From contig PWVH01000014.1 of NCBI GenBank assembly GCA_003563465.1, forward strand, positions 1 to 32,634: a stretch of DNA of 32,634 nucleotides. Direction: 5' to 3'. Below, piece by piece: positions 1,575 through 32,052 of the stretch. Position numbers and translations under genes: made by a program. The notes below the pieces were generated by a model, which saw only the letters and a program-made list of their open reading frames with translations, ran no database searches and was not told the DNA's origin. Position 1 is the stretch's first letter, and every line of letters begins with the position of its first letter. This stretch comes from Coriobacteriaceae bacterium (lineage in GTDB: Bacteria > Actinomycetota > Coriobacteriia > Anaerosomatales > SLCP01).

Positions 1575-1637
1575 ACGACTCCGGGGTATGAACCGCACAT
1601 GGCGTGCCCAGAGTTGCGATTGAGCGGAGGCCTGGAG

Positions 1638-2240
1638 ATGCCGACGAAAGCGCGAATGTTTGCGATCGCCGTCGCGGTGCCTTGCGCACTGGTTCTGGCG
1701 CTTGTAGTCGGCGGGTGCGCTGCCGAGGAGCCCGAACCGACCGCCCTGCCGCCTTCTGTCGAGCCCGAGTCGCCCGCCGAAGAGCCACCTTCGGAGCGGC
1801 CGGCCTCGGCCTTTCCGTGGGCCGATGTCGAGCTCGAGGACGTCAGCACGGGCGAGACCTTCCGAATCTCCGATTTCGCAGGCAGACCGGTGCTCGTCAA
1901 GACGTTCGCCGTGTGGTGAAGCGTCTGTCGCCGTCAGTTGACGGAGACTAGCAAGCTCGTGCGAGAAACTGATGAGGTCGTAGTGGTCGCCGTCGACATC
2001 GACCGAAACGATGACGCTCAGGCGGTGCGCGACCACATCGATCGCAACGACTTTGCAGGCTTGTTCGTTGTGGCGCCCCTCGAGATGACCGAGATGCTGA
2101 CCGACGAGTTCGGCACTGTGATAGTTATTCCGCCGAGAACGCCCAAGATACTCCTCAACTCTGCGCAGACAGATGCGGACCTGTTCACGGGAGTGAAGTC
2201 CGCCGAGGAATTGCTTGCGATAGCCGAGGACACTCGGTGA
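1638..2240 (+). CDS. TlpA/ResA-like thiol:disulfide oxidoreductase lipoprotein, selenoprotein (Sec encoded by in-frame TGA 1917-1919; motif W-U-S-V-C)
   Basis: ORF-track entries 1599..1919 and 1938..2240 are in the same frame and are separated only by TGA 1917-1919. The joined sequence reads ...RISDFAGRPVLVKTFAVW-U-SVCRRQLTETSKLVRETDEVVVVAVDIDRNDD..., a thioredoxin-fold WCxxC context with Sec in the first position. A GGAGG RBS precedes ATG 1638. The lipobox is LVVGG|C. A hairpin follows the TGA, and selD/selA/selB are in the same window. Confidence 0.8.
1923..1948 (+). promoter_or_regulatory. Putative bacterial SECIS hairpin for the TlpA-like selenoprotein
   Basis: Upper stem CCGTC(1931-1935)/GACGG(1940-1944) with apical loop AGUU. 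Lower stem GTCT(1923-1926)/AGAC(1945-1948) with a 4-nt 5' bulge. The apical G-U lies about 20 nt after the UGA. Confidence 0.55.
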
Positions 2241-24733: not shown

Positions 24734-25765
24734 GTGAGCGATCCGATTCGCCTCACCCAGATGTCTAGCAAGGCCGGTTGAGCTGCGAAGTGGGGTCCGG
24801 AGGACCTCGCCAACGTGCTCGCTTCGCTCTCACCTCAGGAGTCCGAGCGGCTCATGGTGGGTTTCGAGACCAGCGATGACGCCGCTGTCTACCTGCTCGG
24901 CGACCGCGCTGTTCTGCTCACCATAGACTTCTTCACGGCCATGGTGGACGACCCTTACGACTTCGGGCGAATCACGGCTGCCAACGCGCTATCCGACATA
25001 TATGCGATGGGTGGCCGGCCTCTTGCGGCACTCAACATGCTCGCCTTTCCCTGCTCGATGGACCCGGACGTGGTTGCCCAGGTGCTCCAGGGTGGCGCGG
25101 CGACCTGTGCCGAGGCCGGGGTGCTCGTGGTCGGGGGGCACACGATCGACGACAAGGAGCCGAAGTTCGGGCTTGCGGTCATGGGGGAGGCCGATCCGGA
25201 TGCGGTCGTGCGCAACGTCGGCGCGCGCGAAGGCGACTCTCTCGTGCTCACGAAGCGCATCGGGGTCGGGATCATGAATACCGCACTCAAGGCCGAACTC
25301 GAGACAGAGGAGACGCTTGCTGATGTCGTCGAGTCCATGGCGCACCTGAACAAGACTGCTGCCGAGGCCATGATCGAGATCGGGGTGAACGCAGCTACGG
25401 ATGTGACCGGGTTCGGACTTCTGGGCCACGTCCGGGAGATGGCACTCGGTAGCGGTGTCGCCGCGGAAATCGAGCTCGATGCGGTACCTGTCTGGCCGAA
25501 GGCCTACGAATACGCGAGCCAAGGTGCCAAGCCGGGACGAACCCTCGACGTGATCGACGCACTCGACGAGCATGTCGACTGGGGCCCCGCCGATCAGGCA
25601 TGGAAAGACGTTCTTTGCGACCCGCAGACCAGCGGAGGGCTGCTGATGGCTGTGTCGCCCGATCGCGTCGATGATCTCTTAGCATCGCTCGAAGCCAAGG
25701 GCGAGACGGCGGCGTTGGTCGGCCACATCATTGCGGGTGAACCGGGCGCTATCGTCATAGTCTAG
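24734..25765 (+). CDS. selD: Selenide, water dikinase (selenophosphate synthetase) SelD, selenocysteine-containing form (Sec at TGA 24779-24781)
   Basis: The ORF track starts at 24815, but the same frame upstream reads V-SDPIRLTQMSSKAG-U-AAKWGPEDLANV, i.e. the conserved SelD N-terminus (RLTQ...G-[C/U]-x-x-K) with TGA at the catalytic Cys/Sec position. The rest is typical SelD (FETSDDAAVY, GGHTIDDKEPKFGLAV). Confidence 0.9.
24792..24808 (+). promoter_or_regulatory. Putative bacterial SECIS hairpin for selD
   Basis: GGGGTCC (24792-24798) pairs with GGACCTC (24802-24808), including one G.U pair, with a G-rich apical loop GGA. The loop lies about 20 nt after the UGA, the same spacing as in the TlpA-like gene. 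Confidence 0.55.
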
Positions 25766-25806: not shown

Positions 25807-26145
25807 ATGGCCAAGCGCGTGCTCATAGTGACGGATCGGATCGGACGCGGTGATGAAGAGCTTGGCTGGGTGTTGATGCGCAGCTTCTGTCACTCGCTCG
25901 CACGCAACGAACGTAAGCCGGCTTCGGTGATGCTCATGAACGAGGGCGTGCGTCTGGCGTGCGAAGGGTCTGAGGTGCTCGACGACCTGCGCCTGCTCGT
26001 CGAGAAGGGTGTCGCGGTCAAGGCATGCGGCACCTGTCTGGACTTCCTCGGCTTGAAAGAGTCGCTGGCTGTGGGTGAAGAGGGGACGATGATCGATTCC
26101 GTCGCCGCGCTTCTCGGCCGAGATGACGTAGTAACGATCTCGTAG
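25807..26145 (+). CDS. DsrE-like protein corresponding to the C-terminal domain of the long YedF-type selenium metabolism proteins
   Basis: RVLIVTDRIGRGDEELGWVLMRSF...VMLMNEGVRLACEGSEVLDDLRLLVEKGVAVKACGTCLDFLGL, the DsrE-like pattern ending in CGTCL. Lies between selD and selA. Confidence 0.75.
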   Translation: MAKRVLIVTDRIGRGDEELGWVLMRSFCHSLARNERKPASVMLMNEGVRLACEGSEVLDDLRLLVEKGVAVKACGTCLDFLGLKESLAVGEEGTMIDSVAALLGRDDVVTIS

Positions 26146-26245: not shown

Positions 26246-27646
26246 ATGGACACTCAAGAACGTCTCAGACGGCTTCCCAAGGTCGACGATCTGCTCAGGC
26301 ACTCTCGCGTGCTCGAGATGCTCGAAGACCACCCGCGCCCTCTCGTGCTCGAAGTTCTGCGCGAGTCACTCGACCTCACGCGCAAACGCTTGATTGCCGA
26401 CGAGCGCGCATCCTATGACGAGGCCACGTTGCTCGCGGAGGCTGAAACGCGGCTCGCACTGAAGTCGCTGCCGAGTCTGCGCCGCGTGATAAACGCGACC
26501 GGGATCATCGTTCACACGAACCTCGGCAGGTCCATCCTCTCGAAGAAGGCGGTAGCAGCCGTCACGGAGGTCGCAGGCTCCTACTCGACGCTCGAGTACG
26601 ACACGGCTTCGGGCGAACGGGGCAGCCGTCATGTCCACTGCGAGGAGCTGCTTTGCCGCTTGACCGGCGCCGAGGCGGCCATGGCCGTCAACAACAACGC
26701 TGGCGCAGTCATGATTGCACTCGCCGCCTTCGCCAGGGGCAAAGAAGCGGTGGTCAGCCGCGGCCAGCTCGTGGAGATAGGCGGCTCCTTTCGCATACCC
26801 GACATCATGCGAGAGTCCGGCGCGACCATGGTCGAAGTCGGCACCACCAACAAGACCCACTTGCGCGACTACGAAAACGCCATAACGGAGCGCACGGGTC
26901 TCATCCTCAAGGTGCACTCGAGCAACTTCCGCGTGGTGGGCTTCACGCAAGAGGTCGGATTGAGCGAGCTGGTGGAGCTCGGGGCCAGGCACGGAGTGGT
27001 GGTCTTCGAGGATTTGGGCTCTGGGGTGATCATCGACCTGCGGCGTTACGGTCTGCCATACGAGCCCACGGTAGCCGAGTCTGTGGCGACGGGCGCCGGA
27101 CTGGTCTCTTGCTCGGGTGACAAGCTTCTAGGAGGGCCTCAAGCTGGAATTCTTGTGGGCAGTGCCGAGATCATCCAGCGCCTTAAGAAGCATCCCATGG
27201 CCCGTGCCTTGCGCCTCGACAAGATGACGCTGGCTGCCCTGGAGGCCACGCTTCGCACCTACATCGACACCGAAGCGGCGCTTGCCGAGATTCCGACACT
27301 TCGCATGCTCGTCATGCCGCCCGCCGAGGTGGCCGAGCGTGCGGCAGCCCTCGCTTCCCGTATCGCGGAGGAGTGTGGGAACGGAGTCGAGACCGACACC
27401 GCGGGTGATGTCTCGCGGGCCGGAGGTGGGTCGCTGCCGCTGGCTGATATCCCGACCACGGTCGCTCGCGTCAAGCCCCGAAGCTTCTCGGTGACGGAAC
27501 TGGAACGCCGTCTGCGCCTCGGCGAGCCGCCCATAGTGGCACGAATCAAAGACGAACGCCTGCTTATCGATCCGCGCACGCTGTGCGCGGGAGAGGACGC
27601 CGAAGTCGTCTCACGGGTGGCGTCGGTTCTTTCGAACGAGGCGTGA
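26246..27646 (+). CDS. selA: L-seryl-tRNA(Sec) selenium transferase SelA
   Basis: N-terminus MDTQERLRRLPKVDDLL aligns with the SelA N-terminal domain. PLP-lysine context CSGDKLLGGPQAG. INATGIIVHTNLGRS. Confidence 0.95.
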   Translation: MDTQERLRRLPKVDDLLRHSRVLEMLEDHPRPLVLEVLRESLDLTRKRLIADERASYDEATLLAEAETRLALKSLPSLRRVINATGIIVHTNLGRSILSKKAVAAVTEVAGSYSTLEYDTASGERGSRHVHCEELLCRLTGAEAAMAVNNNAGAVMIALAAFARGKEAVVSRGQLVEIGGSFRIPDIMRESGATMVEVGTTNKTHLRDYENAITERTGLILKVHSSNFRVVGFTQEVGLSELVELGARHGVVVFEDLGSGVIIDLRRYGLPYEPTVAESVATGAGLVSCSGDKLLGGPQAGILVGSAEIIQRLKKHPMARALRLDKMTLAALEATLRTYIDTEAALAEIPTLRMLVMPPAEVAERAAALASRIAEECGNGVETDTAGDVSRAGGGSLPLADIPTTVARVKPRSFSVTELERRLRLGEPPIVARIKDERLLIDPRTLCAGEDAEVVSRVASVLSNEA

Positions 27647-29697: not shown

Positions 29698-29727
29698 TTG
29701 ACGTAGCTTATCCCTAAGATGTACGCT
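29698..29727 (+). promoter_or_regulatory. Candidate promoter for the tRNA: -35 TTGACG, 18-nt spacer, -10 TACGCT
   Basis: TTGACG at 29698-29703 and TACGCT at 29722-29727 (TAnnnT). The predicted start falls about 7-9 nt downstream, at the mature 5' end (G29736). Confidence 0.4.
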
Positions 29728-29735
29728 GGTTATGT

Positions 29736-29831
29736 GACTGGTTGAGTCGGCTGGCGCCGATCGCGGAGTGCAAATCCGTTGGGCTCACCGCAGAGGTCAG
29801 CTGTTCGGTTCGATTCCGAAACCAGTCTCCA
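29736..29831 (+). tRNA. tRNASec-like tRNA with cysteine identity elements (anticodon GCA, discriminator U73, CCA encoded), in the position usually occupied by selC
   Basis: Hand fold: acceptor GACTGGT(T) / GA / D stem GTCGGC - loop TGGC - GCCGAT (6 bp, 4-nt loop) / C / anticodon stem GCGGA - loop GTGCAAA - TCCGT / 24-nt variable region with stem GCTCACC..GGTCAGC / T arm (T)TCGG-TTCGATT-CCGA(A) / ACCAGTC / T / CCA. The acceptor plus T branch totals 12 bp (7/5 or 8/4). Confidence 0.75.
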
Positions 29832-30014: not shown

Positions 30015-31271
30015 ATGACCCAGCGTAGGGTAATCGGCCCCACGGCATGGATCGTGGGCGCAGCGGGCCTGTTCATCGGGGCCCTCGCTGGCTGGCTGGT
30101 CAGCCAGGGCAACCCCGGCAACATGGGCCTGTGCATCGCATGCTTCTGGCGCGACATCGCTGGGTTCTTCGTGGGAGGGGTCTCGAATCAAGCGGCCGTC
30201 GCGTACATCCGTCCCGAGATAATCGGGATCATCTTGGGGGCTCTGGGCGCCGCCATCGTGACCAAGGAGTACAAACCGCGTGGCGGCAGCGCGCCTCTGT
30301 TGCGTTTTGTGATGGGATTCATCTTCATGAGTTCGGCCCTGGTCTTCCTCGGCTGTACGGTACGTGCCTGGGTACGTCTGGGTGGCGGAGACCTCACGGC
30401 GCTCTGGGGGCTCCTCGGGATCGTCATCGGTGTCGGTGTCGGCATCGTCATTCTCAAGAGCGGCTATAACCTGGGTCGCGCTAAGGGCGCGCCCGCCTGG
30501 ACCGGGTGGATCGTCACCGGGATTGCGGTCATCTTGCTGGCGTTTGCGCTCTGGACGCAGTTCGGGACCAAGCCGGAGTTCGCTACGCTCACCCCGGCGA
30601 ATGCCAGGGCGGTCATCCCAGGTGAAGTCGTCGTGGCGCCCGCGCCCGACGGTGACGGTCTCACTGTACTGAGGCCTGCCGACGCAACCATTGTCGACGG
30701 CGCGGTCGTTGCAGCCGACGGAGAGGTGCTTGCGGATGCCGACAAAGTCGCATCCACTGGGCCGATGCCTGGCGGAAGGCGCGCACCTTTCTTCATTTCG
30801 CTCGCTGCTGGGCTGGCTATCGGTGTCGTCGCACAGCGCAGCCGTTTCTGCTCGGTCGGCGGCATCCGTGACGCGATTCTCATCAGGCGCTTCGACCTGC
30901 TGTTCGGAGTGATCGGGCTCGTGATCGGCGCGACCGTGGTCAACATGATTTTCGGTCAGTACAATCTTGGGTTCACGGGTCAGCCGGTGGCCCACAACGA
31001 CGCACTCGGTAACATCGCCGCGATGGTGATAGCCGCGTTGGCGGCCGTCATGCTCGGAGGTTGCCCGATGCGTCAGATGATTATGGGCGCCGAGGGTGAC
31101 GCCGACGGCGCCGCTGCGGTGGTCGGCATGGTGATCGGCGCAGGTTTCACCCACTGGGCTGGCTATGCGTCCTCGCCGGCGGGCTTGGCCGACAGGGCGT
31201 GGCCTGCACTCGGTGTCATGGCGGTCATTCTTGCGGCCATCGCGCTTGCGAAGCGTGCCAGGGCCGCATAG
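30015..31271 (+). CDS. yedE: YedE-family putative selenium/sulfur compound transporter (YeeE/YedE fold)
   Basis: Signature N-terminus GNPGNMGLCIACFWRDIAGFF, second-half motif RSRFCSVGGIRD, and about 10 TM segments. Confidence 0.88.
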   Translation: MTQRRVIGPTAWIVGAAGLFIGALAGWLVSQGNPGNMGLCIACFWRDIAGFFVGGVSNQAAVAYIRPEIIGIILGALGAAIVTKEYKPRGGSAPLLRFVMGFIFMSSALVFLGCTVRAWVRLGGGDLTALWGLLGIVIGVGVGIVILKSGYNLGRAKGAPAWTGWIVTGIAVILLAFALWTQFGTKPEFATLTPANARAVIPGEVVVAPAPDGDGLTVLRPADATIVDGAVVAADGEVLADADKVASTGPMPGGRRAPFFISLAAGLAIGVVAQRSRFCSVGGIRDAILIRRFDLLFGVIGLVIGATVVNMIFGQYNLGFTGQPVAHNDALGNIAAMVIAALAAVMLGGCPMRQMIMGAEGDADGAAAVVGMVIGAGFTHWAGYASSPAGLADRAWPALGVMAVILAAIALAKRARAA

Positions 31272-31288
31272 GGCGAAGGGAGAGAACG

Positions 31289-31498
31289 TTGAAGGAAGTC
31301 GATGCACTCGGACTCTCTTGTCCGATGCCGCTGATGCTTACCAAGAAGGCTCTCGAGGAGAACCCCGGCGAGATACTCGTACACGTTGACAGCGGGACGG
31401 CGAAGCAGAACGTCGTCGGCCTGCTCAGCGACTACGGTTTCACTGTGAGTGTCGAGCAGACCGGCGAGGAATACCGGATCAAAGGGATGCGTGCCTGA
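31289..31498 (+). CDS. TusA/SirA-like sulfur (selenium) carrier protein (YedF N-domain equivalent)
   Basis: LKEVDALGLSCPMPLMLTKKAL carries the CPxP motif of the TusA family. TTG start with GAAGGGAGAG upstream. 69 aa. Confidence 0.82.
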   Translation: MKEVDALGLSCPMPLMLTKKALEENPGEILVHVDSGTAKQNVVGLLSDYGFTVSVEQTGEEYRIKGMRA

Positions 31499-32052
31499 TG
31501 CTGTTCGGACGCAAGAAGAAACAGACGGAAGCCCCGGACGCCGAGGAGGCGTTCGGGCTCTTCCTCTTCGACGAAGTGCCTCACGCGCTTGCTGCCGAGC
31601 GTGCACTCAAAGCTGCGGGATACGACATCACGCTGGTGGCCCCGCCACCTCACCTGCGTGCCGGATGCGACCTCGCTGTCGCGCTCCCGCGGGTCGAGCA
31701 CGTGGGAGCCGAGCGCGTGCTTGTCGAGGCGGGCGTGCACTTCAAGGAGTGGGTGAACGACGTCGAAGGCATCTCTAAGATATGCGACCTCGTTACCACC
31801 GTGGACTTCGGCGAGTGGCTGATGGTGCGGTCCGGGAACATGAAGATCGTGATCGAGAAGGCGACTGGCACGATCGTGAACACCTCGGGCGGCGGGTGTC
31901 CGGACATCCCGTACTTGAATCTGGAGCTGGTGGGCGTGCCTCTCGAGGATGCTCCTCGGCCCAAGGAACTCGGCTACACGCTCTGCGGCCTCATGCTCGA
32001 TCGTGCCTACCTCGAAGTGAAAGCGCAGCTCGAGGGGGGTGCAACCGAATGA
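31498..32052 (+). CDS. DUF3343 (putative Se/S carrier-like) domain fused to an uncharacterised Cys-containing C-terminal domain
   Basis: The N-terminal FGLFLFDEVPHALAAERALKAAGYDITLVAPPPHLRAGCDLAV matches the DUF3343 pattern. The C-terminal roughly 110 aa carry GGGCPDIPY and TLCG. The ATG overlaps the tusA-like stop (TGATG). Confidence 0.65.
   Translation: MLFGRKKKQTEAPDAEEAFGLFLFDEVPHALAAERALKAAGYDITLVAPPPHLRAGCDLAVALPRVEHVGAERVLVEAGVHFKEWVNDVEGISKICDLVTTVDFGEWLMVRSGNMKIVIEKATGTIVNTSGGGCPDIPYLNLELVGVPLEDAPRPKELGYTLCGLMLDRAYLEVKAQLEGGATE

Follow-up and report, generated by a model that had tools for sequence, protein, structure and literature searches.

A tRNASec-shaped tRNA with cysteine identity marks follows selB in a selenium gene cluster from Coriobacteriia

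The selC* tRNACys species described by Mukai et al. (2017, Nucleic Acids Research, PMC5389517) are tRNAs that resemble the selenocysteine (Sec) tRNA, tRNASec, and carry the discriminator base U73 together with a GCA or a UCA anticodon. They first came to light as false hits in searches for tRNASec, and their hosts are anaerobes that also have selA, selB, selC and selD; sometimes a second selB or a special cysS follows (PMC5389517). An 8/4 acceptor/T branch is described for them, to which some deltaproteobacterial members add an A51a bulge, and the arrangement differs by phylum; for the deltaproteobacterial member that was tested, the 8-base-pair (bp) acceptor stem mattered (PMC5389517). According to the summaries in PMC11415595 and PMC13582414, the class was renamed tRNAReC by Vargas-Rodriguez et al. 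in 2018. In the account that PMC11415595 gives of the GCA member from Desulfotomaculum nigrificans, the Sec codon UGA is read as cysteine (Cys), the tRNA does not interact with elongation factor Tu (EF-Tu), and SelB delivers it; the passages of PMC13582414 on this point have both the GCA and the UCA types recoding UGA if a selenocysteine insertion sequence (SECIS) is present. Here a tRNASec-shaped tRNA with a GCA anticodon is described from a 32,634-nucleotide (nt) stretch of DNA from Coriobacteriaceae bacterium (contig PWVH01000014.1), hereafter the window. With a probability of about 0.6, it would be an accessory tRNA of the selC* tRNACys/tRNAReC type, inserting Cys at SECIS-marked UGA codons while a normal tRNASec coexists with it.

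Two further precedents have to be considered. One is the tRNASec(GCA) of Aeromonas salmonicida (Mukai et al. 2016), which in the summary given by PMC11415595 reads Cys UGC codons as Sec. The other is the allo-tRNAs, which have 8/4 or 9/3 branches, carry identity elements mismatched to their anticodons and use EF-Tu; they are found at toxin-antitoxin or transposon loci in Acidobacteria, Clostridia and Proteobacteria (Mukai et al. 2017). In Escherichia coli, one of three amber-suppressor allo-tRNA variants inserted serine (Ser), which the authors credited to its G73 (Mukai et al. 2017).

The window tRNA is 96 nt long and ends in an encoded CCA (29829-29831); its GCA anticodon occupies 29770-29772 and its discriminator, U73, is at 29828. 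It reads GACUGGUU-GA-GUCGGC/UGGC/GCCGAU-C-GCGGA/GUGCAAA/UCCGU-U-[G GGCU C ACC GCAGA GGU C AGCU G]-U-UCGG/UUCGAUU/CCGA-A-ACCAGUC-U-CCA. The acceptor strand GACUGGU(U) and the connector GA are followed by a 6-bp D stem (GUCGGC/GCCGAU) with the tetraloop UGGC, an anticodon arm with a 5-bp stem and the loop G-U-GCA-A-A, a variable arm of about 21 nt (GGCU-C-ACC / GCAGA / GGU-C-AGCU), and a T arm, (U)UCGG/UUCGAUU/CCGA(A), behind which come ACCAGUC, U73 and CCA. An ordinary bacterial tRNACys is about 74 nt long and has a 4-bp D stem, a normal D loop and a variable loop of 4-5 nt; the window tRNA departs from it in its length, in its 6-bp D stem with a 4-nt loop and in its long variable arm. ARAGORN names the gene tRNA-Cys(gca), and its best Rfam family is tRNA-Sec (RF01852), with 49.3 bits against a gathering score of 47 (E 3.5e-07). 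Such a marginal match corresponds to the way in which selC* tRNACys members first surfaced (PMC5389517). A sequence-only reading of this DNA had placed a tRNASec-shaped tRNA with Cys identity at this position; GCA, U73, CCA, the Sec-type D arm and the long variable arm are all confirmed, and the outcome of the ARAGORN and Rfam checks agrees with that description.

By its SelB homologues the contig belongs to uncultured Coriobacteriia. Relatives of the locus were gathered as the loci around the closest SelB proteins (exact-protein look-ups) and as metagenome loci. The same tRNA lies directly after selB in four of them (L081, from GCA_964392675.1, L082, L206 and L209, from GCA_035685585.1, with SelB 80-82% identical), and a sixth copy was found at the metagenome locus L116 in another gene context. 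The six orthologues are 84-92% alike. The GCA anticodon, U73, CCA, G18G19 and the T loop (GGUUCGAUUCC) are invariant in 6/6 copies. Pairing in the helices reaches 95.7%, and five pairs have changed in a compensatory way, while the intergenic DNA that flanks the tRNA ranges from barely alignable to unalignable among the relatives. These patterns indicate that the tRNA gene is under purifying selection. The window copy alone has G32 (29768) and an A31:U39 closing pair; the other five orthologues have C32, four of them with G31:C39 and L116 with U31:A39. A purine at tRNA position 32 is unusual and might affect decoding.

The minimum free energy fold of the single sequence recovered the acceptor, D and variable arms and not the anticodon and T arms (z -2.5), and the structure was therefore judged by covariation. 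The set comprised 16 sequences, from the window's clade and from a sister clade (clade B) found in soil and sediment metagenomes. In this set the D stem is 100% paired, with compensatory changes in 5/6 pairs, and all eight pairs of the variable arm (8/8) covary; once the sister clade is added, 17-18 pairs covary in total. None of the 500 shuffles and none of the slid controls reached any of these covariation measures.

The acceptor/T branch has 12 bp, one fewer than in the lineage's canonical tRNASec, and 12 nt follow the T loop, where the selC of the lineage has 13. Two partners are available to the nucleotide behind CCGA: U8, giving an 8/4 branch, or U49, giving a 7/5 branch. The 7/5 pair 71:87 is paired in 15/15 sequences, with a CG<->UA swap, whereas the eighth acceptor pair of the 8/4 arrangement (8:87) can form in no more than 9/15. 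Either arrangement fits 5/6 copies in the window's own clade, L082 having a C:A mismatch at the eighth acceptor pair; owing to this mismatch and to the family alignment, a covarying eighth acceptor pair was dropped as a feature of the tRNA. The 12 bp proposed earlier (8/4 or 7/5) thus stand, and the covariation favours 7/5.

The acceptor stem starts with G1-A2-C3 and has the pairs A2:U71 and C3:G70, without the Ser-type G2:C71/A3:U70 pairs. The lineage's canonical tRNASec genes all have G73, the start G1-G2-A3 and the pairs G2:C71/A3:U70. Because U73 is invariant and G1-A2-C3 stands where the lineage's tRNASec has G1-G2-A3, Cys identity would be preferred over Ser or Sec identity. The window tRNA shares with canonical tRNASec (selC, RF01852) the 6-bp D stem with its 4-nt loop, the long variable arm and the place after selA-selB; it differs in having GCA instead of UCA, U73 instead of G73 and 12 acceptor/T positions instead of 13 (8/5), and its score is 49 bits, that of the selC genes proper of the lineage 72-74 bits. 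With an identity of 60% to the local selC and of 73% to other Sec-like tRNACys genes, it is not a recent duplicate of the local selC. In the canonical tRNASec genes themselves (L082 17289-17385, L085 13198-13294 and others) the eighth acceptor position is a purine-purine mismatch, G:G in most copies and, with both sides changed, A:A in L085.

A canonical tRNASec (UCA, G73) lies on the same contig as the GCA tRNA in L082, L206 and L209. It has a GGAGG acceptor start, reaches 72-74 bits with Rfam, and is situated 70-80 nt after the stop codon of a Carb_kinase-like gene; the L081 contig ends inside an identical copy. The window ends 585 nt into its own Carb_kinase-like gene, before the expected site, and by comparison with these relatives the organism's selC probably lies about 400 nt past the contig end. 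The search for a canonical UCA/G73 selC, which the sequence-only reading had called for, was thus successful in L082, L206, L209 and, truncated, in L081, while the window's contig stops short of the site. The same reading had the GCA tRNA sitting where selC should be. selA-selB are indeed directly upstream, but in the relatives canonical selC has been displaced downstream and not replaced. Four genes, yedE, TusA/YedF-N, Se_S_carrier/DUF8182 and Carb_kinase-like, separate selB from selC in L081, L082 and L206-L209; this cassette resembles an insertion that displaced selC by ~3-5 kb downstream, and L083 and L084 are without it.

The presence of the GCA tRNA is patchy. In L083 and L084 (SelB 78% and 75% identical) selC follows selB directly, with no cassette. 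The cassette and selC are both found in L207 and L208 (SelB 81% and 79%), where only a 78-nt gap separates selB from yedE and the GCA tRNA is missing. A SelB search of genome contigs returned mostly distant SelB loci, and two from Coriobacteriia, both with UCA selC. Since the cassette and selC occur without the GCA tRNA in L207 and L208, the tRNA is dispensable and is an accessory gene, neither a housekeeping tRNACys nor the decoder of Sec. A role as the sole or housekeeping tRNACys was rejected for the same reason, the gene being absent from these close relatives.

With the selC* tRNACys/tRNAReC class the window tRNA shares the tRNASec-like body, the long variable arm, U73, the GCA anticodon (the majority type), the 12-bp branch, the linkage to sel genes, and genomes with selA, selB, selD and canonical selC, the last seen here in relatives. 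It is unlike the class in having no A51a bulge, in the 7/5 branch that covariation favours over 8/4, and in its surroundings: no dedicated selB* or cysS* is visible, and the gene follows an ordinary selB and precedes a yedE cassette. The reports of tRNASec-like tRNACys species, some with GCA, to which the sequence-only reading had pointed concern this class (PMC5389517). The phyla named for it are Firmicutes, Thermodesulfobacteria, Nitrospirae and Proteobacteria, and later Armatimonadota, Desulfobacterota and JAPLJL01. Coriobacteriia (Actinomycetota) are not among the phyla named in the literature found, where Vargas-Rodriguez et al. 2018 may widen the distribution, and the literature search returned no paper combining Coriobacteriia, selB and tRNA. 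The kind of tRNA is already known and experimentally characterised; new are the Coriobacteriia lineage, the layout selB / tRNA(GCA) / yedE cassette / selC with the presence and absence of the tRNA among near relatives, and the repeated occurrence of such tRNAs just upstream of yedE in unrelated metagenomic lineages.

By combining these observations with what is described for the class, it is possible to outline how the tRNA may act. Cysteinyl-tRNA synthetase (CysRS) would recognise in it the GCA anticodon and U73, which are the enzyme's two main identity elements, and charge it with Cys. The Sec-like body would cause the Cys-tRNA to be bound by SelB rather than by EF-Tu, the product of the neighbouring selB being presumably its carrier. 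SelB bound to a SECIS would then bring the Cys-tRNA to an in-frame UGA, such as codon 16 of selD or the UGA of a UxxC redoxin. Cys would thereby be placed where Sec-tRNASec otherwise delivers Sec, and selenoprotein genes would stay translatable when selenium is short. The sequence-only reading regarded GCA as barred from UGA by standard pairing; this objection is not decisive, given the SelB- and SECIS-dependent reading of UGA that the summaries in PMC11415595 and PMC13582414 report for GCA members.

Both Sec codons that had been noticed in the window are indeed UGA. Codon 16 of selD is UGA at 24779-24781, in the context KAG-UGA-AAKWGP, and is likely a SECIS-marked target codon. The second UGA, a candidate target, lies in a TlpA-like gene (Table 1); with U read as C, its product matches AhpC-TSA, Redoxin and Thioredoxin, and the gene likely encodes a UxxC selenoprotein that open-reading-frame callers split in two. 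The putative SECIS hairpins that follow the two UGA codons do fold, though not better than shuffled sequence, and carry no weight here. Insertion of Cys through SelB, one of three options in the sequence-only reading, is the best-supported of them and corresponds to a described class. The accompanying idea, that the tRNA solves the bootstrapping problem of a SelD that is itself a selenoprotein, has no specific support, because relatives without the GCA tRNA also have a Sec-type selD: codon 16 is UGA in every relative, and the notion that the tRNA tracks Sec-type selD was rejected.

Several points weigh against a Cys-inserting tRNA of the selC* type. The contig does not carry the organism's own canonical selC. 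The window copy has G32 where all its relatives have C32. The favoured 7/5 branch is at odds with the importance of the 8-bp acceptor stem in the tested deltaproteobacterial member. Clade B, the sister clade, occurs in contexts unrelated to selenium (for example, L109). Finally, Ser or dual charging is possible, as the long variable arm is the main element recognised by seryl-tRNA synthetase (SerRS) and U73 allo-tRNAs have been considered possible Ser acceptors (PMC5389517).

The same body could belong to an EF-Tu-dependent tRNA for sense codons, either an odd second tRNACys isoacceptor for UGC and UGU or a Ser-charged missense adaptor similar to an allo-tRNA. A 7/5 arrangement and a 12-bp branch of ordinary tRNA length would suit such a tRNA, as would the selenium-unrelated contexts of clade B, and allo-tRNAs share with the window tRNA the 12-bp branch, the Sec-like D stem-loop and the long variable arm, can have U73, and depend on EF-Tu in E. 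coli. However, the window tRNA has no mismatch between its marks, GCA and U73 being the exact Cys identity set. Its neighbours are selB and yedE inside a sel cluster, and similar genes recur beside selB, selD and yedE in other lineages, whereas allo-tRNAs are tied to toxin-antitoxin or transposon surroundings in Acidobacteria and other groups. That only one of the three variants in E. coli inserted Ser, credited by the authors to its G73, speaks against Ser on a U73 tRNA. In the summary of PMC11415595 the published GCA-type member does not use EF-Tu. A sense-codon tRNA of either kind is unlikely. A genuine Sec tRNA with a sense anticodon, of the Aeromonas salmonicida type, would rely on SerRS, SelA and SelB, and would insert Sec at SECIS-marked UGC or UGU codons, an option that the sequence-only reading had also raised. 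Such a tRNA is reportedly expected to have G73 and to be the sole tRNASec. No Sec enzyme reads the anticodon, and the Sec-like D arm, the long variable arm and the place directly after selA-selB would suit this explanation, for which the tRNASec(GCA) that reads Cys codons as Sec is a precedent (Mukai et al. 2016, as summarised in PMC11415595). This tRNA is likewise Sec-shaped with GCA; the window type differs from it by a U73 that is invariant in all six copies, in a lineage whose tRNASec genes all have G73 and G1-G2-A3, and by a separate canonical selC in relatives. A normal UCA selC with G2:C71/A3:U70 coexists with it, all visible Sec codons are UGA, and close relatives with the same gene set are without the GCA tRNA, which together make Sec insertion at UGC or UGU quite improbable.

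A mainly non-translational role, in which the tRNA would serve the yedE operon as a processing signal or tRNA-like leader, or regulate the uptake genes as a Cys/Se sensor, is suggested by the way in which the tRNA abuts the yedE ribosome-binding site in L081 and L209 and by gaps of only ~20-30 nt in L092, L099, L128, L151 and L163. This role is very improbable, given that a full cloverleaf, an intact T loop, G18G19, the encoded CCA and an invariant anticodon point to a translating tRNA, that yedE has a promoter-like site of its own in the window and in L206, and that other members of the family adjoin selB and not yedE. Decay of a selC, the last option of the sequence-only reading, or an assembly or sequencing artefact would account for the marginal Rfam tRNA-Sec score, which falls below threshold in one orthologue. 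It has next to no probability: six assemblies, independent of one another, share the GCA/U73 tRNA, with compensatory changes in its stems and a promoter-like motif that is conserved, which rules out pseudogene decay and sequencing error, and the tRNA is only 60% identical to the lineage's selC.

The conserved motif upstream, TTGAC(G/T)-18 nt-TAnnnT, is kept in all five syntenic copies (the window, L081, L082, L206 and L209) and ends 8-9 nt before the tRNA. It was found by eye, a simple consensus promoter scan having missed it (weak -10 hexamer), and in the window TTGACG...TACGCT is a putative promoter of the tRNA. The tRNA is situated between selB and yedE, within a cluster of selD, a yedF-like gene, selA and selB (Table 1), and yedE is the first gene downstream of it. 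In the window and in L206 a separate promoter-like site of yedE lies between the two genes; the tRNA of L081 and L209 leads straight into the ribosome-binding site of yedE, 28-30 nt ahead of the start codon. YedF appears to be split in the window: a gene for its C-terminal domain follows selD, and a TusA-like gene for its N-terminal domain follows yedE.

Table 1. Positions of the tRNA, its arms and the neighbouring genes in the window, and of HGD-D genes at other loci
Feature	Position	Strand	Evidence or remark
TlpA-like thioredoxin-fold lipoprotein	1599-2240	+	in-frame UGA 1917-1919, motif W-U-S-V-C
selD, selenophosphate synthetase	24734-25765	+	Pfam AIRS, AIRS_C
YedF C-terminal-domain protein	25807-26145	+	NCBIfam TIGR03527 120 bits, profile positions 87-194
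selA, selenocysteine synthase	26246-27646	+	Pfam SelA 505 bits, Se-cys_synth_N
selB, Sec-specific elongation factor, 638 aa	27652-29568	+	Pfam GTP_EFTU, Beta-barrel_SelB, SelB-wing_2, SelB-wing_3; homologues named SelB
Promoter-like motif TTGACG-18 nt-TACGCT	29698-29727	+	ends 8 nt before tRNA 5' end
tRNASec-shaped tRNA, anticodon GCA	29736-29831	+	ARAGORN, Rfam, covariation, six orthologues
tRNA D arm	29746-29761	+	
tRNA anticodon arm	29763-29779	+	
tRNA variable arm	29782-29802	+	
tRNA T arm	29804-29820	+	
yedE family putative selenium transporter	30015-31271	+	NCBIfam TIGR04112 355 bits (cutoff 200); Pfam Sulf_transp
TusA-like / YedF N-terminal-domain protein	31286-31498	+	TIGR03527 positions 1-64; Pfam TusA in orthologues
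Se_S_carrier / DUF8182 protein	31498-32052	+	Pfam of orthologues (L081, L082, L206-L209); tblastn 63-70% identity
Carb_kinase-like gene, cut by contig end	32049-32634	+	matches in relatives
HGD-D locus, L082	12145-14214		with BcrAD/BadFG activator
HGD-D locus, L086	5315-6586		
HGD-D locus, L099	1210-2481		
HGD-D locus, L113	6983-7888		

Metagenome loci were scanned with a pattern that combines the GCA anticodon of a tRNA, a long variable arm, the standard T loop and U73-CCA, and at least 120 loci matched. Among the 120 matches listed, about 55 are Sec-like tRNA(GCA, U73) genes as judged by ARAGORN and by a covariance model that was built from the window's clade and used on the metagenome loci. 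With this model the Sec-like tRNACys genes, which fall into several subfamilies, score 42-113 bits, ordinary class II tRNAs 31-40 and canonical selC 57-69. Among the matches listed, Sec-like tRNACys genes adjoin selB in L100, L113, L119, L142, L147, L178 and L190, selD in L141 and a full YedF in L164. These counts suggest that the class is more frequent and more varied than one would conclude from the small number of published phyla.

In the order seen in the window, a YedE-family gene starts 20-30 nt after a Sec-like tRNACys of another subfamily in L092, L099, L128, L151 and L163; that of L099 matches TIGR04112 with 504 bits. The adjacency of tRNA and yedE recurs in at least three Sec-like tRNACys subfamilies, and the literature search found no report linking yedE to the class. 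In Methanococcus maripaludis, yedE mRNA rises by ~5 log2 units on selenium starvation (PMC11097638). From this induction comes the speculation that tRNA and transporter are one selenium-limitation module. The tRNA gene stands at the head of the yedE/yedF genes and is apparently co-transcribed with them in several genomes. Low selenium would increase uptake and at the same time bring in Cys as a substitute at UGA/SECIS codons, that of selD among them. The Sec-shaped tRNACys and the yedE/yedF uptake genes might then be a portable selenium-starvation module that has been gained or lost repeatedly, even among close relatives within Coriobacteriia, a tentative and rather doubtful proposal for which the occurrence of clade B outside selenium contexts is a caution.

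Other contexts were observed in the same loci. In L109 (1453-3874) a clade-B Sec-like tRNA(GCA), 74% identical to that of the window, lies between two genes for pyridoxal-phosphate (PLP)-dependent enzymes, one of which has CBS domains (cysteine synthase / cystathionine beta-synthase-like), a cysteine-metabolism context. The 2-hydroxyacyl-CoA dehydratase D-component (HGD-D) adjoins Sec-like tRNACys in four unrelated loci (Table 1). In L157 (1074-4433) a Sec-like tRNACys is found between the gene for a pyridine nucleotide-disulfide oxidoreductase with a rhodanese domain and an MvhD/FlpD gene; MvhD is often a selenoprotein in sulfate reducers. Genes for tRNA-Cys(GCA, U73) with an ordinary D arm and a long variable arm, located in phage-like multi-tRNA arrays (L093, L095, L098, L121, L122, L162, L170, L174 and L181), form a separate group.

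In genomes that carry such a tRNA, a UGA/SECIS site could not be assigned to Sec from sequence alone. Through the repeated adjacency of the tRNA and yedE, a connection between Cys-for-Sec recoding and selenium uptake can be put to the test. If the window tRNA is of the selC* tRNACys/tRNAReC type, an actinobacterial lineage, Coriobacteriia, would join the organisms that keep a Cys-inserting stand-in for tRNASec. Within one narrow clade some selenium loci have the tRNA and others, identical in all else, do not; these relatives provide natural comparison sets for its role.

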